A stretch of 64,000 bases of DNA from assembly GCA_963769935.1 (NCBI GenBank), contig CAVYNY010000022.1:352001-416000 (forward strand). The letters are read 5' to 3'. How positions within the stretch are numbered: the first letter of the stretch is position 1; each line of letters opens with the position of its first letter. A model generated the notes under the pieces. It worked only from the letters and a program-made list of their open reading frames with translations, had not been told where the DNA came from and searched no databases. This DNA is from an uncultured delta proteobacterium (GTDB taxonomy: Bacteria > Desulfobacterota > Desulfobacteria > Desulfobacterales > JAFDCJ01). Made by a program: the position numbers and the translations under genes. Shown piece after piece: positions 32,162 through 42,477 of the stretch.

Positions 32162-33130
32162 TTACTTTAATGCCACTTTAAGGTACAGATCTCCCCGTTG
32201 ACCCGTTGGATATTGTTTTCCCAGTCCTCTGAGCCGCAGCTTGTGACCCTCCTGAATCCCAGCCGGTACCGCCACCTTGAAGAGGCGTTTATGAAATCCC
32301 CGCGGAATGTTGATCAATTTATAGGTACCTGCGGCAGCTTCATGCGCTGTGATGGTAATTGTGCCGTAAAGGTGCGGATCAGGTCCGGGGCCGACCGGCC
32401 GAATAGCCTGAAGATGCGGGGATTTTCGGCGCGCGGTTACGCGACGAACTGCCTCGGGCGGCTCGGCGCCCGGTAGTGCCAGCAAAATCTTTAAGCATAA
32501 AATGCCGAAGATAAACCCTCCGATATGCGCCCACCAGGCAACACCGCCTGCCTGGCCATGGCTGGCGGCTGCGCTGATAAATTGAAATAGGAACCATAAT
32601 CCGAGAAAGAAATAGGCCGGGATCTCCAGAAAATAGGGAATAAAAAAAATGGGGATGAGAGTTAAGATTTTAGATCGCGGGTATAGAACAAAATAAGCGC
32701 CCATCACACCTGCAATCGCACCGCTGGCACCGATGGTGGGGACATTGGAGTTCAGATTTAAAAGAAGATGGGAAATCCCCGAGGCGAATCCGCAGCAAAG
32801 GTAAAATACCAGGTAACGCCCGTGACCCAGGCGGTCTTCAACGTTGTCGCCGAATATGTAAAGCGACCACATATTGCCGAGCAGATGCCAGAAACCGCCA
32901 TGCAGAAACATAAAAGACAAGAAGGAAAAAACCTGGTACGGGTTGCTGAAATAGATGCTGATTTGAGGATTCGTATAACGAGCCGGCACCAGACCGAAGA
33001 TATAAACGAACCGGTCCCCCTCGGCTCCCAACGACAGTTGAAACAGGAAGACAAGCACATTGATGCCGATGAGGACGTTGTTGACAACCGGATAATTTCG
33101 GGCCTGGACCGTATCACGCAGAGGGATCAT
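32162..33130 (-). CDS. Rhomboid intramembrane serine protease with C-terminal DnaJ_C-like domain
   Basis: 'MIPLRD', 'FLHGG..HLLGNM', 'GASG', 'WWAHIGG'; tail 'VPAGIQEGHKLRLRGLG...RGDLYL'. Confidence 0.9.
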   Translation of the reverse strand: MIPLRDTVQARNYPVVNNVLIGINVLVFLFQLSLGAEGDRFVYIFGLVPARYTNPQISIYFSNPYQVFSFLSFMFLHGGFWHLLGNMWSLYIFGDNVEDRLGHGRYLVFYLCCGFASGISHLLLNLNSNVPTIGASGAIAGVMGAYFVLYPRSKILTLIPIFFIPYFLEIPAYFFLGLWFLFQFISAAASHGQAGGVAWWAHIGGFIFGILCLKILLALPGAEPPEAVRRVTARRKSPHLQAIRPVGPGPDPHLYGTITITAHEAAAGTYKLINIPRGFHKRLFKVAVPAGIQEGHKLRLRGLGKQYPTGQRGDLYLKVALK

Positions 33131-33473: not shown

Positions 33474-36137
33474 TCATGCCTGCGCTGCCTTTATGCGGTC
33501 AAGGTTGAGTTGAAGTTTTTGCTGCTTTTCCAGCAAGGCGCTTTGTTTCTCCTTCACTTTGTCAATCACATCGGCCGGTGCCTTGCTCAGAAAACCTTGA
33601 TTTGCCAGTTTTTTGTCCACCGCTGTCAGTTCGGTTTTCAATTTGTTGATTTCCTTGGCCAGGCGTTGGGTTTCTTTGCCGAAGTCAATGATACCTTCCA
33701 GGTCGACAAAAATCGAAGCATTGTTTACCACTGCGGTGGCGGATGACCTCGGTCTTCGGCCGGAGTTTTGAACCGTGAGCGAATCCAGCCGGGCAAGATT
33801 GAGGAGCAGGTCGCGTTGACGGTCAATTACTTCCCGGGTAGAGGTGTCCTCTGATACAATCAAGACCCGCAAGGATAGAGACGGAGCAATGTTCATCTCG
33901 CCCCGTACATTCCGGATGCCCGTAATTACACTCATCAGGATCCCCATTTCAGATTCAGCTTCCCGGTACTGATAGGCTGCGGCATTCTCGGTGGAAAACT
34001 CGGGATAGCCGGCTTTCATAATTGAACCGCTGGTACCGGGCATATGGTGCCAGATTTCTTCGGTAACAAAGGGGATAAATGGATGCAGCAGCACCAAAGT
34101 ATCCCGCAACACCCGCCACAGCACCGACTGGGCTGCTTCCTTGGCTGCCGGTCCCTGTTTATCGTAAAGGGCCGGTTTGACGGCTTCAAGGTACCAGTCA
34201 CAGAATTCATGCCATACAAAATTATATAACACTCCGGCCGCTTCATTGAAGCGATAACCGTCCAATGCATTGGCCACTTCGGTTGTCGTCCATGCCAGGC
34301 GGGATAGAATCCATCTGTCAGGCAGCGAAAGATTGCGAGCATTCAGCGCTTCATATCCTTGCTGCAGGTGCAACATCGCAAAACGGGATGCATTCCACAA
34401 TTTGTTAATAAAATGCCGATAGCCTTCAACCCGTTTTTCCGACATTTTGATATCCCGCCCCTGGGCGGCAAACGCCGCCAGGGTGTATCGGAAGGCATCC
34501 GTGCCGTAGCGGTCGATGACGTTCAACGGATCGATCACATTGCCCTTGGACTTGCTCATCTTCTTGCCGTCTTCGTCCCGCACCAGAGCGTGAACATACA
34601 CATCTTTGAAGGGCACGTCATGCATGAAATGGATACCCATCATCATCATGCGGGCCACCCAGAAAAATAAAATATCAAAACCGGTGACCAGCACGGATGT
34701 GGGATAAAATGTTTTTAAAAGAGGTGTTTCGTCCGGCCATCCCATGGTAGAAAAGGGCCAGAGGGCCGAGCTGAACCAGGTGTCCAGAACATCGGTTTCC
34801 TGCACAAGTTTTGTCGAGTTGCACCCCGGACATGTCCGGGGCGCTTCCATTGATACTGCAATCTCACTGCATTCATCGCAGGTCCAGGCCGGTATCTGAT
34901 GCCCCCACCAGATCTGCCGGGATACACACCAGTCCCGAATGTTGTTCATCCATTCATAATACGTATTGTTCCACATTGCCGGTATGATTTTTGTCTTACC
35001 GCTTTGGACTGCGGCGATAGCCTTTTCTGCCAGGGGTTTGGTCCGTACGAACCATTGTTTGGAAAGATTCGGTTCGACCACCGTTTTGCAGCGGTAGCAG
35101 TGGCCCACGCTGTGGCGATAGGGCACGACCTTAACCAGCAGTCCTTCAGTTTCGAGTTCTTTGACCACGGCCCGGCGGCATTCCAACCGATCCATTCCTT
35201 CAAACCGGCCGGCCTCGGCGGCCATATCGCCGTCGTCACTGATGACTTTTACACTGGGCAGGTGATGGCGGGCTCCGATTTCAAAGTCATTCGGATCGTG
35301 GGCCGGGGTAATCTTCAAACCGCCGGTTCCAAAGGACCTGTCGACGTAGCTGTCTCTAATAATAGGAATTTCCCTCATCATCAGCGGCAGAATGACCTTA
35401 TCGGATTTAATGTTCCGATAGCGCTCATCGTCAGGGTGGACGGCCACTGCCGTATCACCCAGCATCGTTTCGGGTCGGGTGGTTGCCACCACGATGCCGC
35501 CGGACCCGTCCGGAAACGGATAGCGGATATGGTATAGGTGGCCGTCAATTTCTTCGTGTTCAACTTCAAGGTCCGCCAGTGCCGTGTGACAGCGGTGGCA
35601 CCAGTTGATTATGTAGTTGCCCCGATAAATGAGACCTTCCTCATAAAGCTGCACGAAAACTTTTCGCACAGCCTTCGACAGCCCTTCATCCATGGTAAAG
35701 CGTTCGCGTGCCCAGTCACAGGAGGCCCCCAAACGTTTTAGCTGATTGATAATGGCGCTGCCGTATTTTTCGCGCCACTGCCAGACGGCCTCGATGAATT
35801 TCTCCCGTCCCAGCTGATGACGGTCCGTGCCCTCTTCAGCCAGTTTTTTTTCGACCACGTTTTGAGTGGCGATCCCGGCATGGTCGGTACCCGGCATCCA
35901 TAAAACATTATCTCCCCGCAGCCGTCGGTAGCGGCATAAAATATCCTGCATGGTAATATTCAGAGCATGCCCCATATGGAGCACACCGGTGACATTCGGC
36001 GGTGGGATGACAATCGAATAGCTTGCCTGGGTACTTTGCTCCTGGGCGGCAAACAGCTGCTCCTTTTCCCAGAATTCATACCAGCGCTTTTCGACCTCGT
36101 GCGGTTCGTAACCCGTGTCAAATTGGTTGAGACTCAT
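33474..36137 (-). CDS. valS: Valine--tRNA ligase
   Basis: 'PPPNVTGVLHMGH', 'ATTRPET', 'DVLDTWFSS', 'KMSKS', C-terminal coiled coil. Confidence 0.98.
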   Translation of the reverse strand: MSLNQFDTGYEPHEVEKRWYEFWEKEQLFAAQEQSTQASYSIVIPPPNVTGVLHMGHALNITMQDILCRYRRLRGDNVLWMPGTDHAGIATQNVVEKKLAEEGTDRHQLGREKFIEAVWQWREKYGSAIINQLKRLGASCDWARERFTMDEGLSKAVRKVFVQLYEEGLIYRGNYIINWCHRCHTALADLEVEHEEIDGHLYHIRYPFPDGSGGIVVATTRPETMLGDTAVAVHPDDERYRNIKSDKVILPLMMREIPIIRDSYVDRSFGTGGLKITPAHDPNDFEIGARHHLPSVKVISDDGDMAAEAGRFEGMDRLECRRAVVKELETEGLLVKVVPYRHSVGHCYRCKTVVEPNLSKQWFVRTKPLAEKAIAAVQSGKTKIIPAMWNNTYYEWMNNIRDWCVSRQIWWGHQIPAWTCDECSEIAVSMEAPRTCPGCNSTKLVQETDVLDTWFSSALWPFSTMGWPDETPLLKTFYPTSVLVTGFDILFFWVARMMMMGIHFMHDVPFKDVYVHALVRDEDGKKMSKSKGNVIDPLNVIDRYGTDAFRYTLAAFAAQGRDIKMSEKRVEGYRHFINKLWNASRFAMLHLQQGYEALNARNLSLPDRWILSRLAWTTTEVANALDGYRFNEAAGVLYNFVWHEFCDWYLEAVKPALYDKQGPAAKEAAQSVLWRVLRDTLVLLHPFIPFVTEEIWHHMPGTSGSIMKAGYPEFSTENAAAYQYREAESEMGILMSVITGIRNVRGEMNIAPSLSLRVLIVSEDTSTREVIDRQRDLLLNLARLDSLTVQNSGRRPRSSATAVVNNASIFVDLEGIIDFGKETQRLAKEINKLKTELTAVDKKLANQGFLSKAPADVIDKVKEKQSALLEKQQKLQLNLDRIKAAQA

Positions 36138-36262
36138 TTCAATATTGCTCCTTGCTTTTCATTTTTTCAGCAATCGAGGTTTTACGCATCTCCATCCGCC
36201 GAAATAAAAAAGGGGATTATAAATTAATCCCCATTAATTTTCCAGCGGTTTTTACGATTGTT

Positions 36263-38210
36263 TTAGTAATTATCGTCGGGCGGGCTGCTGTCCATTAGAA
36301 CACCCTTCAAGCGTTCGATCTCTTTGGCTACCGTTTTTTCAATTACATCGTAAATGATTTTTTCTATCCGGCCGGAAAATTTTTCATTGATGACGCGTTC
36401 AATGGCCTTATCAATTTGTCCGGGTGAAAACGCGGCTAATTCTTCAGAATGCGGCTCTACCGCTAAATTTTCCTGGATGGCATTCGTGCCTGCAGGGAAA
36501 TCTTCAGGCGGCGATATCGCCTCTGGTTCATCGATTGGATCTTCTGATAAAAATGCATCCAGTCGATCGACTTGTCGGGCGATTGCACCGGGATCAAAAT
36601 TAAAATCGAACGCCTCATCTTCCGAGTCCGGCACTGCAGATTGGGCCGCTAATTCAGGAGCCGGGGCATCTTCGGTATTCTCAGCTTCTTCTTTTGTCAA
36701 CCGCCATTCATCGAGCGCTGCATTGTTGAAATCAGTTTCGGCAGCCTCAGGTTCCGGCTTTTCATCATCATCATCATCATCATTCTTCTTCTTCTGATTC
36801 TTCACTGAAAAAGTCGTCGAGTTCGGTGTATTCGCTTTTTTCGTCCGATTCACCGATTCCTATGATAGGTTCCTCTGCGGTCTGCCGGTCCTCTTCTACC
36901 TCGATCAGCTCGAGAAAGTCATCTTCCTCTTCATCAACAGTATCCAAAATACCGGCCTGTTCCAACATTTTATCGCTATCGTTCGGATAATGCTGATCAA
37001 ATTCGGTAATTTCGACAATGTCATCTCCCGTTTCGGCGTCAAAATCCCATGAACCATCCAGGGGGATTACCTCATCGTCATCTTCCAGTTCGGTTGCGTC
37101 CTCAAGATCAACAAGCAAGCCATTATCATTTTCAAAGTCCAGAGGTTCGTCCAGAGATTCGTTGTCTTCCAGCGCCACGATTTGCTCATCTTCCTGCGGG
37201 TTGGCATCCAGGGCGAGGAGGTTGGCGTCATCATTTGGTTCAAATTCGAATTCTTCGGTCGGTTTGAAACGTTCTCTTGCGTCATCTGAACCTATCGACT
37301 GCTCCACGGTTCGGGCGATGATATCATCGCCGCTGTCGGTCTCTTCTCCAATCTTGGTGGGTTCACTATTCGCCTCATCCTCGTCTTCAAAATCAAGTTC
37401 AGTGAGGGCTGCCAGATCCGGCAAGTCCTCGATATCGTCATTTCCCAGTGCATCGGCGTCCAGCATGGCGATGGTTGGCGGCGTTCCGCCCGCGCCTTCA
37501 TTCACATCTGGGTTGTCATTGTGCCGGTGGGAGTCAAATTCCAAGTATTCCGCCGGTTCTTCGGTTTGATCGCGGCGGCCGGATCTATCAGTTTCACCCA
37601 GAACCATGCTGACAAAATCCGGTTGATCTTCGCTGCGTTCATCATCCAAGGCAATCAACTCGTCCCCGTCTTCATCCGTTTCATATTCAAGTTCAATTTC
37701 CTCTTCGAGGTCAAACAAATCCTCATCATCTTCGACACCTGCTGTGTCAGCGTCCGTTACTTCAGCCAAACTTTCGTCTACCGCATCCGGCTCATTATCC
37801 AGTATAATGACATCATCCTCCGAGGCTTTGAATTCGAATCCGTCATCTTTTTTGTAGGGTTCGTCTTCGTCGGATCCCAAAGAATCATTTATGGCCGATG
37901 CAATCAGCTCGTCCTCCCCCATGCCGGTTTCATCATCTGCAAACTGATCGTCCAGTTCTAAGATTACATCTTCTTTCAAGATACCGGGTTTTGAAGCTGC
38001 TTCCCAAACGGTGAAAGCCTCATTGTCATCATCACTGTCGATTTTATGAGCTTCATCGCTCAGGCCGTCGTTTAATTCTATTATGCCGTCATTCTCTTCA
38101 GTCTCAATAATGACCTCATCGGTGAGCTCGATTATGGCATCATCGTCCGATGAGTCGGTCTTGACCGAATTCTGCCGGGGATCTTTTTTATCGATCATAG
38201 TTGTCACCAA
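36263..38210 (-). CDS. Very acidic low-complexity protein, PopZ/RomR-C-like, split by an apparent frameshift at ~36783
   Basis: Two overlapping D/E-rich ORFs meet at a GAA/GAT microsatellite; N-terminal 'DDAIIELTDEV', C-terminal 'IEKTVAKEIERLK'; directly upstream of valS. Confidence 0.65.
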
Positions 38211-38431: not shown

Positions 38432-39196
38432 ATGAGACACTTTTACGTCGATCCGGCAGCCGTGACCAAACCCCTGGTTATACTTAAAGGTTCGGAAGCC
38501 CATCACATCAAAAACGTCTTGCGTTTGAAACGCGAGGACCCCATCAAGCTGATTGACGGAACCGGAAATGAATATGAGGCGGTTATCAAAGTCTTGGATA
38601 CCGAAAAAGTTGAGCTCGAAATCCGGCACGAGTTTCACCCCTCTGCAACTGCTGGTGCACGGATTTTGGTGGCCCAGGCCTTTTTAAAAGAAAAAAAGAT
38701 GGACGATCTGGTGCGCAAACTCAGCGAACTGGGCATGGCCGGTTGGGTCCCCTTTTTTTCGCAGCGCTCCATTGCCAGGCCGGCTAAAGACCGTCTGGTC
38801 GGCCGAACCAACAGATGGAAGCGAATTGCCGCCGAGGCTGTCAAACAATGCCGTCGCAGCGACCTGCTGCAAATTTATGAGGCACTCAGCTTCAAAGAGG
38901 TGCTGCAATTCAGCCAAACCTGTGATTTGAAAATTGTTTTCTGGGAAAATGAGACCGTTCCTCTGAACCGGGACCCGGGATCGAAAGGGCAGGTGCCCTT
39001 AAAAAAAATTATGCTGATGTTGGGACCCGAAGGTGGCTTTACCGAGCAGGAGATCGAATTGGCTCGGCAAGGTGGATTTGCAGTCGCCGCGCTGGGGCCC
39101 CGCATTTTGCGGGCTGAAACCGCCACCCTGGCCGCCTCGACTTTGATCCAATATCTGTATGGTGATATGGGGCTGGGGGGGGACCAGCCGGATTAG
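38432..39196 (+). CDS. rsmE: 16S rRNA m3U1498 methyltransferase
   Basis: 'HHIKNVLR', 'ELG', 'GPEGGF', 'LGPRILRAETA'. Confidence 0.95.
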   Translation: MRHFYVDPAAVTKPLVILKGSEAHHIKNVLRLKREDPIKLIDGTGNEYEAVIKVLDTEKVELEIRHEFHPSATAGARILVAQAFLKEKKMDDLVRKLSELGMAGWVPFFSQRSIARPAKDRLVGRTNRWKRIAAEAVKQCRRSDLLQIYEALSFKEVLQFSQTCDLKIVFWENETVPLNRDPGSKGQVPLKKIMLMLGPEGGFTEQEIELARQGGFAVAALGPRILRAETATLAASTLIQYLYGDMGLGGDQPD

Positions 39197-39655: not shown

Positions 39656-39961
39656 ATGAGTGAAGTGCGAATTAGTATACCAAAACATAAAATTGCTGAT
39701 TTTTGTAAACAAAATCAGGTCCGCAGATTATCTTTGTTTGGTTCGATACTTAGGGAAGACTTTGGGCCGGACAGTGATATTGATATCCTGGTGGAGTTCG
39801 AGCCCGGCACCCGGATGGGACTCATCCGGCTATCCGGATTGGAGATTGAGCTTGGTAAAATAATCGGACGCAAGGTCGATTTGAATACCCCTGGGTTGCT
39901 GAGTAAATATTTTCGCGACCAGATTCTTGCTGAGGCAGATGTGCAATATGACGCAGCATAA
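39656..39961 (+). CDS. Minimal nucleotidyltransferase (MntA-type antitoxin)
   Basis: 'LFGSILR..DSDIDILVEF', 'RKVDL'. Confidence 0.9.
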   Translation: MSEVRISIPKHKIADFCKQNQVRRLSLFGSILREDFGPDSDIDILVEFEPGTRMGLIRLSGLEIELGKIIGRKVDLNTPGLLSKYFRDQILAEADVQYDAA

Positions 39962-40298
39962 TGACATGATAAGGCTTCAACATATGCTCGATCATGCAAA
40001 GGAAGCAATATAACTGATTGCCGGCAAAGATAAGGCGGAACTTCAGCGCGACCGGGTTTTAGAGCTTGCCCTGATCCGACTGATTGAGATTGTGGGGGAG
40101 GCATGTGCGAAAGTCAGTTCTTCGACTCAACTAAAATACCCTTCGATACCTTGGCCGCAGATCATTGGCATGCGCAACCGGTTAATTCATGGGTATGACT
40201 CCGTTGATTTGGATGTTTTGTGGGACACCATCGAAGTCGATTTACCGCCTCTTGTTGATGTCCTTGATAAAATTATTGGTCAAAACGGCGAAGAATAA
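39948..40298 (+). pseudogene. HEPN/DUF86 (HepT-type) toxin with premature TAA
   Basis: Frame MTQHNDMIRLQHMLDHAKEAI*LIAG...IEIVGEA...GMRNRLIHGY; stop at 40011-40013. Confidence 0.85.
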
Positions 40299-40375
40299 AT
40301 ATACATTGGCCGTTTTATAAGTCGGATCGCCAAGCATATTCAGCGTTAATGATGCTGAAATAATAATCTGGTAAA

Positions 40376-41305
40376 TCAGCTCTCCGCTAATCTCTTCAAC
40401 GAATACATCCCATCTAACCCCTTGATCGGTTTGGGTTTTTTCTCATGTTTTGAGAAAAATAGATGTTTAAACCGCTGGTAATTTTTAGCCACAAATACCT
40501 TTGATCCAATAATTCCCGAATCTGTAAAATAGCGGGTGCGGTATCTGAACCGATCGCTTTTGCTGAGTTGAAATTCTCTGCGGCGCTCCTTTGCCAGCAC
40601 CTTGTTTTCAATAACCTTCGCGTTGCCTTTCTCTGGCTGGTTCAGCGCTCCTGCCTCATAGACATACCGGCGGTATCTTCTGATGCGCTCTTTTTTGCTT
40701 TTGACATTAAATTCCTTTAAACCAAAATCTGTAGATAAAAAGCTGTCCCGGTTGGTGGTCTGGATATGGTAGCCCAGTGAATTCCAGCGGTATTGTTCCG
40801 GGAGCTCCACTATCCCGGCACGCAGGGGATTCAGATCGATATAGGCCAGGCAGTTGATCAGCGTCTCGCCGTTTTCAACGATCACGCTCTTAAAACGATC
40901 GCCCCAAAAGTAACCCCGCCGGTGGTGGCGCCGGTTGTAAAACCGGGCAAAGTTAACTTTGATTTCTCGCATAAATTCAGAAAGACTGGATAGTTTTTCC
41001 CGCAATGATGACACCAGGCCTTCTGCGAAAATGCGCTCATCCCCGTAAAAATCCACATAGCGATTTAGAATATCCTTGTCTGTAAACTTGTGCTCAGGAA
41101 ACATCCTCACCAAGATATGGAAATGATTTCCCATCAAACAGAATCCTAATATCTCGACTAAATAAAGGGTAGCGTAACGCCTGATCAGATCCAGCATAAA
41201 ATCTTTTTCGACGTTGCCCAATGGAAAGCCGTCCAGGGCGGTTCTGGACATAACGTGATAAACGGTGCTTTGATCATCAATGATCATTCGTTGCGTTCTG
41301 GGCAT
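40376..41305 (-). mobile_element. Y1 HUH transposase, REP-associated (RAYT-like)
   Basis: 'YHVMSR', 'MGNHFHILV', 'FWGDRFKS', 'YIDLNP', 'YRWNS'; start MPRTQR after AAGGAG. Confidence 0.85.
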
Positions 41306-41446
41306 GATATGCTCCTTTTCTTTTTTATTGATTGTGACTTCCATTGCACATGAATTGATATGTGTCAAGCATAAAGTACCTGTCCCCTATTCTCTTTCTG
41401 CCGGCCAAGTGGTTTCAGATGACCGGTCAATGGACAGAAAGATAAA

Positions 41447-42004
41447 GATAAGAAGTTGCTTTTCCGAAGCGGAAGAATCGGAAAAGGTTAATTGTGTGCC
41501 GGAATCAGCTTCCGACTTCGCTCTTCGAGCTACGACGGGACAAGGCAACTCAACATATTGAGGCGTCAATTAAACGGACCAATGACCATCCAGCTAACGG
41601 AAGCGGGCTTTGTTGTCAATATCGATTTTTGGAGGTGGAATTGAGAACTTGGGCAAATTCGGACATAGCTCACCGTTTTGCCCGCAGCTTGATTTTTTTA
41701 AAGGTAGGCTCCCGTCTTCGTTCTTCGAACTACGCCGCGACAAGGCAACCGGATAATCAGCATCGATGATGTAACGTGTCGCGCCGAAGCAAATGGACAG
41801 TAGGCGGACGTGTCACGCCAAAGAAGCAAATCCGCAGCTGGAACTTATCGTGACGAAAATAGCGAAGGCGGATCATCCGCGCCGGGCGATGAGGATTCGT
41901 CATATAAGATGAAGGATTCGGTCCGCCTCCGGCGGATTGGCTCGCGGAGGCGGTCTGTGTTTAACATCCCATAAGTCCAGGTGCTTGAGGATTTTTTTGA
42001 CGAG
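41447..42004 (-). mobile_element. IS91-family 3' remnant (transposase tail plus oriIS-like end)
   Basis: 41907-42004 matches the transposase tail at 47582-47675; minus strand ends AGCAACTTCTTATC; 41447-41699 is homologous to 59395-59739. Confidence 0.7.
41511..41544 (+). repeat. 34-nt hairpin mini-element (other copies 41711-41744 and 59484-59517)
   Basis: TCCGACTTCGCTCTTCGAGCTACGACGGGACAAG, identical at 59484-59517. Confidence 0.85.
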
Positions 42005-42348
42005 AGGAATGTTCCGGAAGTGCTTTTTTACAAATGTTTCGGCACCCGGAATCCACCTCGTATTTATCACTTTCTCAAATACCAGCTCTGAATATTTCTG
42101 GGCATCCTCCTCTATTTTTCTTTCCGGGGATGGGTCGCCGATAATATTGTAATGGGCGTACTTGATCTTTTCTACCCGGCTGATGCCTCCGTGACGCTGG
42201 TGGTGGGCCACAATCTTCTCTACGATTTCTGGCCCGTATGGTTTGAATATTTCCCTGTACGCGTTGGTTATTGTTGCAGTCGAGTCGACGAGAACGCCGT
42301 CGAAATCAAAAAAAACATGCTGAGTTAGGTTTATACATGCTGTTTCAT
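42005..42348 (-). pseudogene. HAD-family phosphatase, frameshifted and 3'-truncated
   Basis: MKQHV|FFDFDGVLVDS interrupted by a 20-bp insertion; fused at 42004 to the IS91 tail. Confidence 0.8.
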
Positions 42349-42477
42349 TTTCCTGCAGAGAGGTGACAAATTGCTTGACATCATGAAGCTGACAATACAT
42401 ATATGTGTGACAGGTAGGACGTATTACAACTCATATCTAATGTCAATATCAAATTCAACTCAACGGGATAATACCAC

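Follow-up and report, generated by a model that had tools for sequence, protein, structure and literature searches.

Locus and gene product

The DNA analysed here, called the window, is a stretch of 64,000 nucleotides from an uncultured member of the Desulfobacterales. Between a valyl-tRNA synthetase gene (valS) and a divergent rsmE-type gene, it holds a minus-strand gene for an acidic protein (38198-36263), read in two frames that are joined over a +1 shift (Table 1). An earlier note on this DNA, made from the letters alone, had described a D/E-rich, low-complexity product of about 650 aa if the frames were rejoined, and this is what was obtained: the protein has 644 aa (with an X at the join), 34.9% D+E and a net charge of -188, and its FoldIndex is below 0 in 95% of 51-residue windows. 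The 5′ frame encodes 472 aa with 37.5% D+E when started at the ATG of 38198, and the start coordinate of the earlier note is explained by a TTG in the same frame at 38210; the 3′ frame is open over 36853..36263 and carries the C-terminal helix quoted there. All five short hydrophobic motifs that had been quoted as recurring were likewise found in the translation. Neither piece of the gene matched a Pfam or NCBIfam model, PF10691 and NF052660 included; the Pfam search found no receiver domain, as had been claimed, and the 644-aa protein lacks the PopZ helix 1 pattern. The acidic gene is real, conserved and uncharacterised.

The stop codon of the acidic gene is followed after 125 nt, on the same strand, by the start of valS (PF00133, E 3.5e-150). 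Counts of promoters and terminators in the region were at shuffle level. RNA-library contigs cover the acidic gene and continue into valS, which is proof neither of transcription nor of a single transcript.

Further genes of the window were recorded in passing. A rhomboid protease is fused to a DnaJ C-terminal domain at 32162-33130 on the minus strand (PF01694 and PF01556), and a minimal nucleotidyltransferase (PF01909) and a Y1 transposase (PF01797) lie downstream of rsmE at 39656-41368. The minus-strand ORF at 41900-42400, by eye, resembles a HAD-family hydrolase at its start; its tail is different, basic and rich in Pro, and the ORF is possibly a rearrangement remnant.

Table 1. Features of the acidic locus, in window coordinates.
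Feature	Position	Strand	Basis or remark
valS, valyl-tRNA synthetase, conserved downstream neighbour	33474..36137	-	Pfam and synteny
8-bp hairpin between acidic gene and valS, terminator-like on both strands	36212..36232	.	Site counts not above shuffles
Acidic gene, 3′ part	36263..36778	-	Next frame, 171 codons and stop; acidic linker and end helix
C-terminal amphipathic helix, conserved (profile A1)	36290..36442	-	Only part with a predicted fold
(GAA)n-T-(GAT)n triplet repeat with +1 frameshift	36762..36795	.	Likely assembly slip or strain-level slippage
Acidic gene, 5′ part	36780..38198	-	472 codons to frameshift-created TGA; acidic, low-complexity; homologues continuous
Degenerate motif copy FLELIEV, kept across genus	36897..36917	-	Translation and homologues
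Degenerate motif copy IVEITEFD, kept across genus	36996..37019	-	Translation and homologues
Degenerate motif copy LFDLEEEI	37695..37718	-	Translation
N-terminal IIELTDEV motif, residues 22-29, common to PopZ and some RomR-type proteins	38112..38135	-	Conserved
rsmE-type RNA methyltransferase, divergent upstream neighbour	38432..39196	+	Pfam and synteny

The frameshift

The break falls in a GAA/GAT repeat that is longer in the source gene than in its homologues; TRF places the repeat at 36762-36783, with an extra single base between the GAA run and the GAT run. Eight sequencing runs were compared, and contigs of three of them (X1, X4 and X9, as opposed to X2, X3, X5, X6 and X8) span the repeat. 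Over window positions 36000-36906 (907 bases), contig 1 of X1, which may be the source sample of the assembly, has 903 letters (net -4), and over 36000-37291 (1292 bases) the X4 contig has 1279 (net -13); the X9 contig likewise shows 13 gaps, X9 and X4 coming from one study of a related strain. Such lengths restore the frame provided that the gaps fall in the repeat, a position that is only inferred because the alignment skipped the repeat itself. The homologue P0008, 82% identical to the acidic protein (81% before the site and 82% after it), is unbroken across the frameshift site, as is P0004 at 70% identity.

Since the frame is kept in independent contigs and in a homologue of 82% identity, we read the break as an assembly slip, and very probably not as a biological feature. 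A frameshift that is real in the source organism would make the gene a pseudogene, or place its end helix under a repeat-length switch that turns it on and off; the shift does lie in a slippage-prone tract, longer than that of the homologues, and the length of this tract varies among contigs. This reading is nevertheless improbable, given frame-restoring lengths in all three contigs that span the site, equal conservation of both halves relative to P0008, and a second split gene in the same assembly, an mglA copy on contig C4.

The family in the Desulfobacterales

With the 27-row profile A1, the family was found as a single copy in 113 of 121 Desulfobacterales genomes, and a search with the last 62 residues of the acidic protein was positive in 31 of 41 related genomes. 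In a phylum-wide sample, A1 matched in 13 of 301 genomes, 11 of these being Desulfobacterales. The family profile is matched at E ≤ 0.001 by 950 clusters (50% identity), and the source names of the homologues are those of Desulfobacterales. Among 116 apparently full-length representatives, length ranges from 124 to 781 aa with a median of 233, and D+E from 21 to 38%; the idea of a “much longer” organiser does not hold for the family, great length being a trait of the source genus.

Conservation is confined to two parts, the end helix and an IIELT motif close to the start. Between them lies a linker of 60-700 residues, acidic, predicted to be disordered and with 4.9% Pro as against 12.5% in PopZ. 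The expected disorder agrees with the AlphaFold2 model of member P0246 (121 rows), which has one helix at residues 148-191 with pLDDT >90 and values of about 50 elsewhere. Receiver domains were absent from all 150 family representatives and from the 20 weak-match loci, the helix 1 pattern was seen in 0/120 family proteins versus 32/45 alphaproteobacterial PopZ, and of 140 end helices none has a Trp and five have a Pro. A PDB fold search with the P0246 model gave nothing at E ≤ 0.001, which is what a single helix would lead one to expect; a profile search of PDB sequences gave nothing below E 0.5, and a complex prediction with three copies of the end helix scored 0.12, which counts neither for nor against an oligomer. 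The nearest clusters in the ESM Atlas are unnamed Thermodesulfobacteriota proteins, and one cluster with 10% DUF2497 at 0.87 is a lead only.

Position upstream of valS

A conserved linkage to valS had been proposed as a check, and it was observed: valS lies directly downstream on the same strand in 30/30 loci of a first set and directly downstream in 20/20 further loci chosen from weaker A1 profile matches, 50/50 in all. The gap to valS is 31-524 nt across family loci (15 in one locus, where the gene end is masked by N). On the other side, an rsmE-type gene was seen in 11 of 29 other family loci, a count from flanks too short to reveal rsmE near long genes.

The same slot is occupied by PopZ and by RomR-type proteins. 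Among the best PF10691 matches of an alphaproteobacterial sample, 24 of 30 PopZ genes precede valS; this tally takes in G369, an unpublished genome that none of the claims made here depends on. A search with a DNA pattern describing the end of the shared helix yielded at least 80 loci, comprising 45 PopZ, 19 receiver-bearing RomR-type genes and 16 others, one of the latter a frameshifted PopZ; in this set valS follows 41 of the 45 PopZ and 13 of the 19 RomR-type genes. Across the phylum, 40 loci upstream of valS were inspected, about one genome per family, chosen among 150 of 292 matches. In sixteen the slot holds an acidic protein of the receiver type whose end resembles RomR-C (PF00072 over its cut-off in 13 and weak in three), and in ten an acidic protein that has a similar end and no receiver. 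The remaining 14 show something else or offer too little sequence, with no such gene seen before valS, and these count against reading the slot in terms of scaffolds and homology.

Several occupants of the slot deserve separate mention. An HD-domain dGTPase-like gene, identified by eye, sits in or next to it in several Desulfobacterota families (L034, L041, L064, L065 and L071). In Sinorhizobium meliloti Ak57 (CP090106.1), popZ lies between tolC and valS at L072:2260-3189, frameshifted in the record and not annotated. In Pseudomonas aeruginosa (CP109682.1), a small gene between holC and valS (L074:3015-3383) is labelled ‘DNA polymerase III subunit chi’ by the sources and matches no Pfam or NCBIfam model; by eye it is PopZ-like, with an end helix, an IPLLSDV motif and, at the N-terminus, an amphipathic stretch. 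A link was not supported, a profile of 11 Pseudomonas-type sequences scoring no higher than permuted controls against PopZ, the acidic family and RomR-C. The profile test thus does not pass everything that comes from this slot.

The end helix and PopZ

PopZ is described from Alphaproteobacteria. When family members were compared with all 24,736 Pfam models, PF10691 was matched at E ≤ 0.1 by 27 of 121, and the next family by four; the best match had an E of 2.8e-4, and no family member passed the curated cut-off. A PopZ profile built from 30 Pfam-picked sequences reached at least 10 bits on 64 of 150 members, as against none of 150 for the reversed profile. In hhalign, family and PopZ aligned at 85.5% (score 27.9, 39 ungapped columns; reversal 15.2), all such comparisons being gapless at 82.8-85.5% and above 25/25 and 30/30 permutations that keep the hydrophobic pattern, the best of which came near the real score (27.2 vs 27.3; 26.2 vs 27.9). 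At the level of profiles, the PopZ signal appears weak but consistent. The 644-aa protein itself ranks 552nd in its genome with the PopZ profile, giving no direct PopZ signal, and the link to PopZ runs through its relatives because the source protein alone does not score. Of the PopZ-like C-terminus that had been proposed, the similarity stands for the end helix of the family, which aligns with PopZ and beats reversed and permuted controls, but does not extend to a PF10691 or NF052660 match of the source protein, to helix 1 or to the defining Trp and Pro.

Beyond the helix, which aligns without gaps over 39-41 columns and ends in V-x-x-E-I-x-R in both, the family shares with PopZ (PF10691, DUF2497; NF052660) the place directly upstream of valS, an acidic linker predicted to be disordered and a VLELTD/IIELTD-type motif early in that linker. 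The valS neighbourhood of the PopZ gene is noted in PMC6414705. Unlike PopZ, the acidic family has no client-binding helix 1 and no predicted helix 2, its end helix lacks Trp or Pro and its linker is poor in Pro; it stays below the family cut-offs, is up to three times longer, and often has rsmE upstream instead of tolC. According to PMC12999525, PopZ H3H4 is a trimeric coiled coil, W151 is required for the trimer and helix 2 for filaments.

The end helix, RomR and bridging sequences

The direct comparison with RomR-C, the other similarity proposed earlier, is doubtful, judged by its controls. In hhalign the family scored 88.7-92.3% against forward and 80.7-89.6% against reversed targets; in one comparison forward did no better than reversed (88.7 vs 89.6; 48.6 vs 69.9) and in a second it was barely ahead (90.6 vs 80.7; 33.4 vs 49.0), the reversed target beating the forward one for the pattern-picked set. 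The RomR-C profile reached at least 10 bits on 71 of 150 members forward and on 14 of 150 reversed. In the source genome, a Myxococcota-rich RomR profile ranks the 644-aa protein 654th, profile A3 finds nothing at E ≤ 0.05, and a reversed Desulfobacterota RomR profile also ranks the acidic gene first. What stood of the proposal is a link weaker than that to PopZ and partly at control level for the family, and clear for bridging members.

The link to RomR is carried by the bridges. Two of these are family members: L232 scores 31.6 bits with the family profile and 30.5 bits with RomR-C (reversed, 2.1), and L245 scores 39.1 and 28.3 bits (reversed, 2.3). A profile of eight receiver-less proteins from other orders ranks the acidic gene 1st of 76,324 six-frame ORFs of the source genome (E 2e-4), as against 368th for the reversed profile. 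This receiver-less set matches the family at 96.6%, RomR-C at 96.7-97.7% and PopZ at 94.8-95.1%, well above controls, and Desulfobacterota RomR-C matches Pfam-picked PopZ at 92.5% (reversal 12.4%). Sets picked by the DNA pattern inflate scores between RomR and PopZ, and we therefore relied on sets picked by synteny or Pfam.

RomR of Myxococcus xanthus and its homologues resemble the acidic family in lying directly upstream of valS and in having an unstructured linker and a Glu-rich end helix; acidic-family genomes carry MglA, with MglB seen in the source genome, the sole genome checked for it, and some receiver-bearing forms of Desulfobacterota have the same motif directly after the receiver. 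They differ in that the family lacks the receiver, the RomX-binding part described in 10.1101/2024.02.20.581209, and the invariant Trp and Pro; the alignment has a four-residue gap and a profile match near the reversed controls. According to PMC3441718, RomR consists of receiver, linker and RomR-C, RomR-C is described as not homologous to characterised domains, and both a receiver-less RomR-C match and genomes whose RomR lost a domain are mentioned. PMC12719032 gives RomR 371-420 as a trimer and W394 as binding MglC. Given the importance of W151 for the PopZ trimer and of W394 for MglC, the missing Trp counts against the reading as a PopZ/RomR-like scaffold. In other orders of Desulfobacterota, the acidic proteins that lie before valS and have no receiver (L032, L048, L050, L061 and L067 among them) share the slot and the end helix with the family (hhalign 96.6-96.8%, reversal 5-11%); they differ in that most retain the Pro and that two match PF10691 weakly (E 6.7e-4 and 0.013). 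They are likewise uncharacterised.

The IIELTD-type motif

In its strict IIELTD form, the motif occurs only once in the acidic protein (residue 22); a loose form (two hydrophobic residues, D/E, then L/I) has eight copies there, as against a mean of 1.8 and a maximum of 7 in 2000 shuffles. The pattern [IV][IVL][ED]L[TSV][DE] was fixed on the family before PopZ was tested with it, and occurs in 18 of 30 Pfam-picked PopZ. Loosened at two positions after inspection, it occurs in 20 of the 30 (shuffles: mean 0.12, maximum 2) and in 78 of 116 family members (shuffles: 1.25), the motif background being 13 in 6701 ORFs. The motif is also present in six of 16 receiver-type proteins at residues 144-159, directly after the receiver, and in seven of ten receiver-less proteins of other orders, mostly near the start; it was absent from 44 of 45 mostly rhizobial PopZ, searched with a slightly different pattern, and from all 19 pattern-picked RomR proteins. 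With the motif behind the receiver in RomR-type proteins and near the start in receiver-less ones, the acidic family looks, in sequence, like a PopZ or RomR with its head removed, beginning at the motif.

Proposed function and alternatives

By membership the acidic family is neither PopZ nor RomR, and it is most likely related to both. Its end helix is, on profile evidence, quite likely homologous to those of PopZ and RomR. The shared helix, motif and place before valS make it likely that the family, too, organises cell poles, and that PopZ and RomR go back to one ancestor. The best explanation, to which we give a probability of roughly 0.55, is a headless PopZ/RomR homologue that acts as a self-assembling oligomeric scaffold at the cell pole, polar function being the somewhat favoured role by analogy with its relatives. 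By analogy with RomR 371-420 and PopZ H3H4, the end helix would form a coiled-coil oligomer, probably a trimer. Acidic assemblies can be excluded from the nucleoid, and the strongly negative linkers would keep these assemblies off it and hence gather them at the pole. Partner proteins would dock at the IIELTD-type motifs, of which one is conserved and several are degenerate. Recruitment would be unlike that of the models, as the family lacks the receiver that serves RomX-MglA, the Trp that serves MglC and the helix 1 that serves PopZ clients. Condensation may be weakened by the long linker: a doubled PopZ linker led to a higher saturation concentration in PMC9512792.

The family could also descend from the same ancestor and be polar no longer, having lost head, Trp and Pro; it would then serve as an acidic, oligomer-forming scaffold or chaperone in another part of the cytoplasm, with division sites or basic proteins as examples of its place of action. 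That receiver, helix 1, Trp and Pro are all gone fits this, as do lengths that vary freely from about 120 to 780 aa and the lack of a predicted counterpart of PopZ helix 2, which PopZ filaments need according to PMC12999525. We hold it to be rather unlikely, however, in view of the single-copy retention in 113/121 genomes, the retained hydrophobic register and motif, and the polar location of both characterised relatives; in M. xanthus, RomR-C and the linker are each sufficient for polar targeting (PMC3441718).

Two further readings compete with these. If the likeness were convergent, a matter of composition among acidic low-complexity proteins that end in an amphipathic helix, and the place before valS had been filled independently, one would understand why reversed RomR-C profiles score nearly like forward ones on the family, why every PF10691 match lies below the cut-off and why the source protein has no direct score. 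What makes this unlikely is that the PopZ signal is direction-specific (64 vs 0 of 150), that bridging sequences exist, that the motif is a second common feature at a matching place, that three groups share the same neighbour, and that the Pseudomonas gene from the same slot failed the same test. Alternatively, the valS linkage found in 50/50 loci could itself be functional, the protein assisting or positioning ValRS or translation; yet PopZ and RomR share this neighbour and have known polar roles, the gap ranges over 31-524 nt (15 in the one N-masked locus) with a terminator-like hairpin at the source locus, and many bacteria carry valS without such a gene, which makes this very unlikely.

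Building on the headless polar scaffold, a broader picture can be drawn tentatively. PopZ, RomR and the acidic family might form one ancient valS-linked scaffold superfamily with the plan [swappable head]-[IIELTD motif]-[acidic disordered linker]-[oligomerising end helix], in which the head would be helix 1 in Alphaproteobacteria, a receiver in myxobacteria and geobacters, and nothing in Desulfobacterales. With heads swappable and none in Desulfobacterales, IIELTD/VLELTD could be the ancestral client-docking site, and sulfate reducers could hold a minimal polar condensate with its valency set by motif copies and linker length. The literature accessible to us, mostly non-subscription text, contained no statement of homology between PopZ and RomR and no description of the acidic family. 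If the picture is true, the two best-studied bacterial polarity hubs would gain one origin, via a family between them at the same locus; a candidate pole organiser would be named for a whole order of sulfate reducers; a conserved motif in PopZ itself would be highlighted; and natural scaffolds of 120-780 residues would be at hand for condensate engineering.

A separate canonical RomR-C was found in none of 41 related genomes, three weak matches being the acidic family's own helix, and MglA is present in 40 of the 41; a link of the family to MglA-controlled motility is therefore possible. The source genome has an mglB-mglA pair and pilT, and a single roadblock-family match in a search that need not detect MglC. 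Its two best matches to a RomR receiver profile were dismissed as RomR, having by eye no RomR-C end. For MglA, the genome encodes three full paralogues (C3:81879-82481, C16:249755-250354 and C20:46928-47524) and the split copy on C4 (C4:36465-37051), most relatives having two to four; the C3 copy lies between a short mglB, which it follows, and an unnamed gene of 260 aa.
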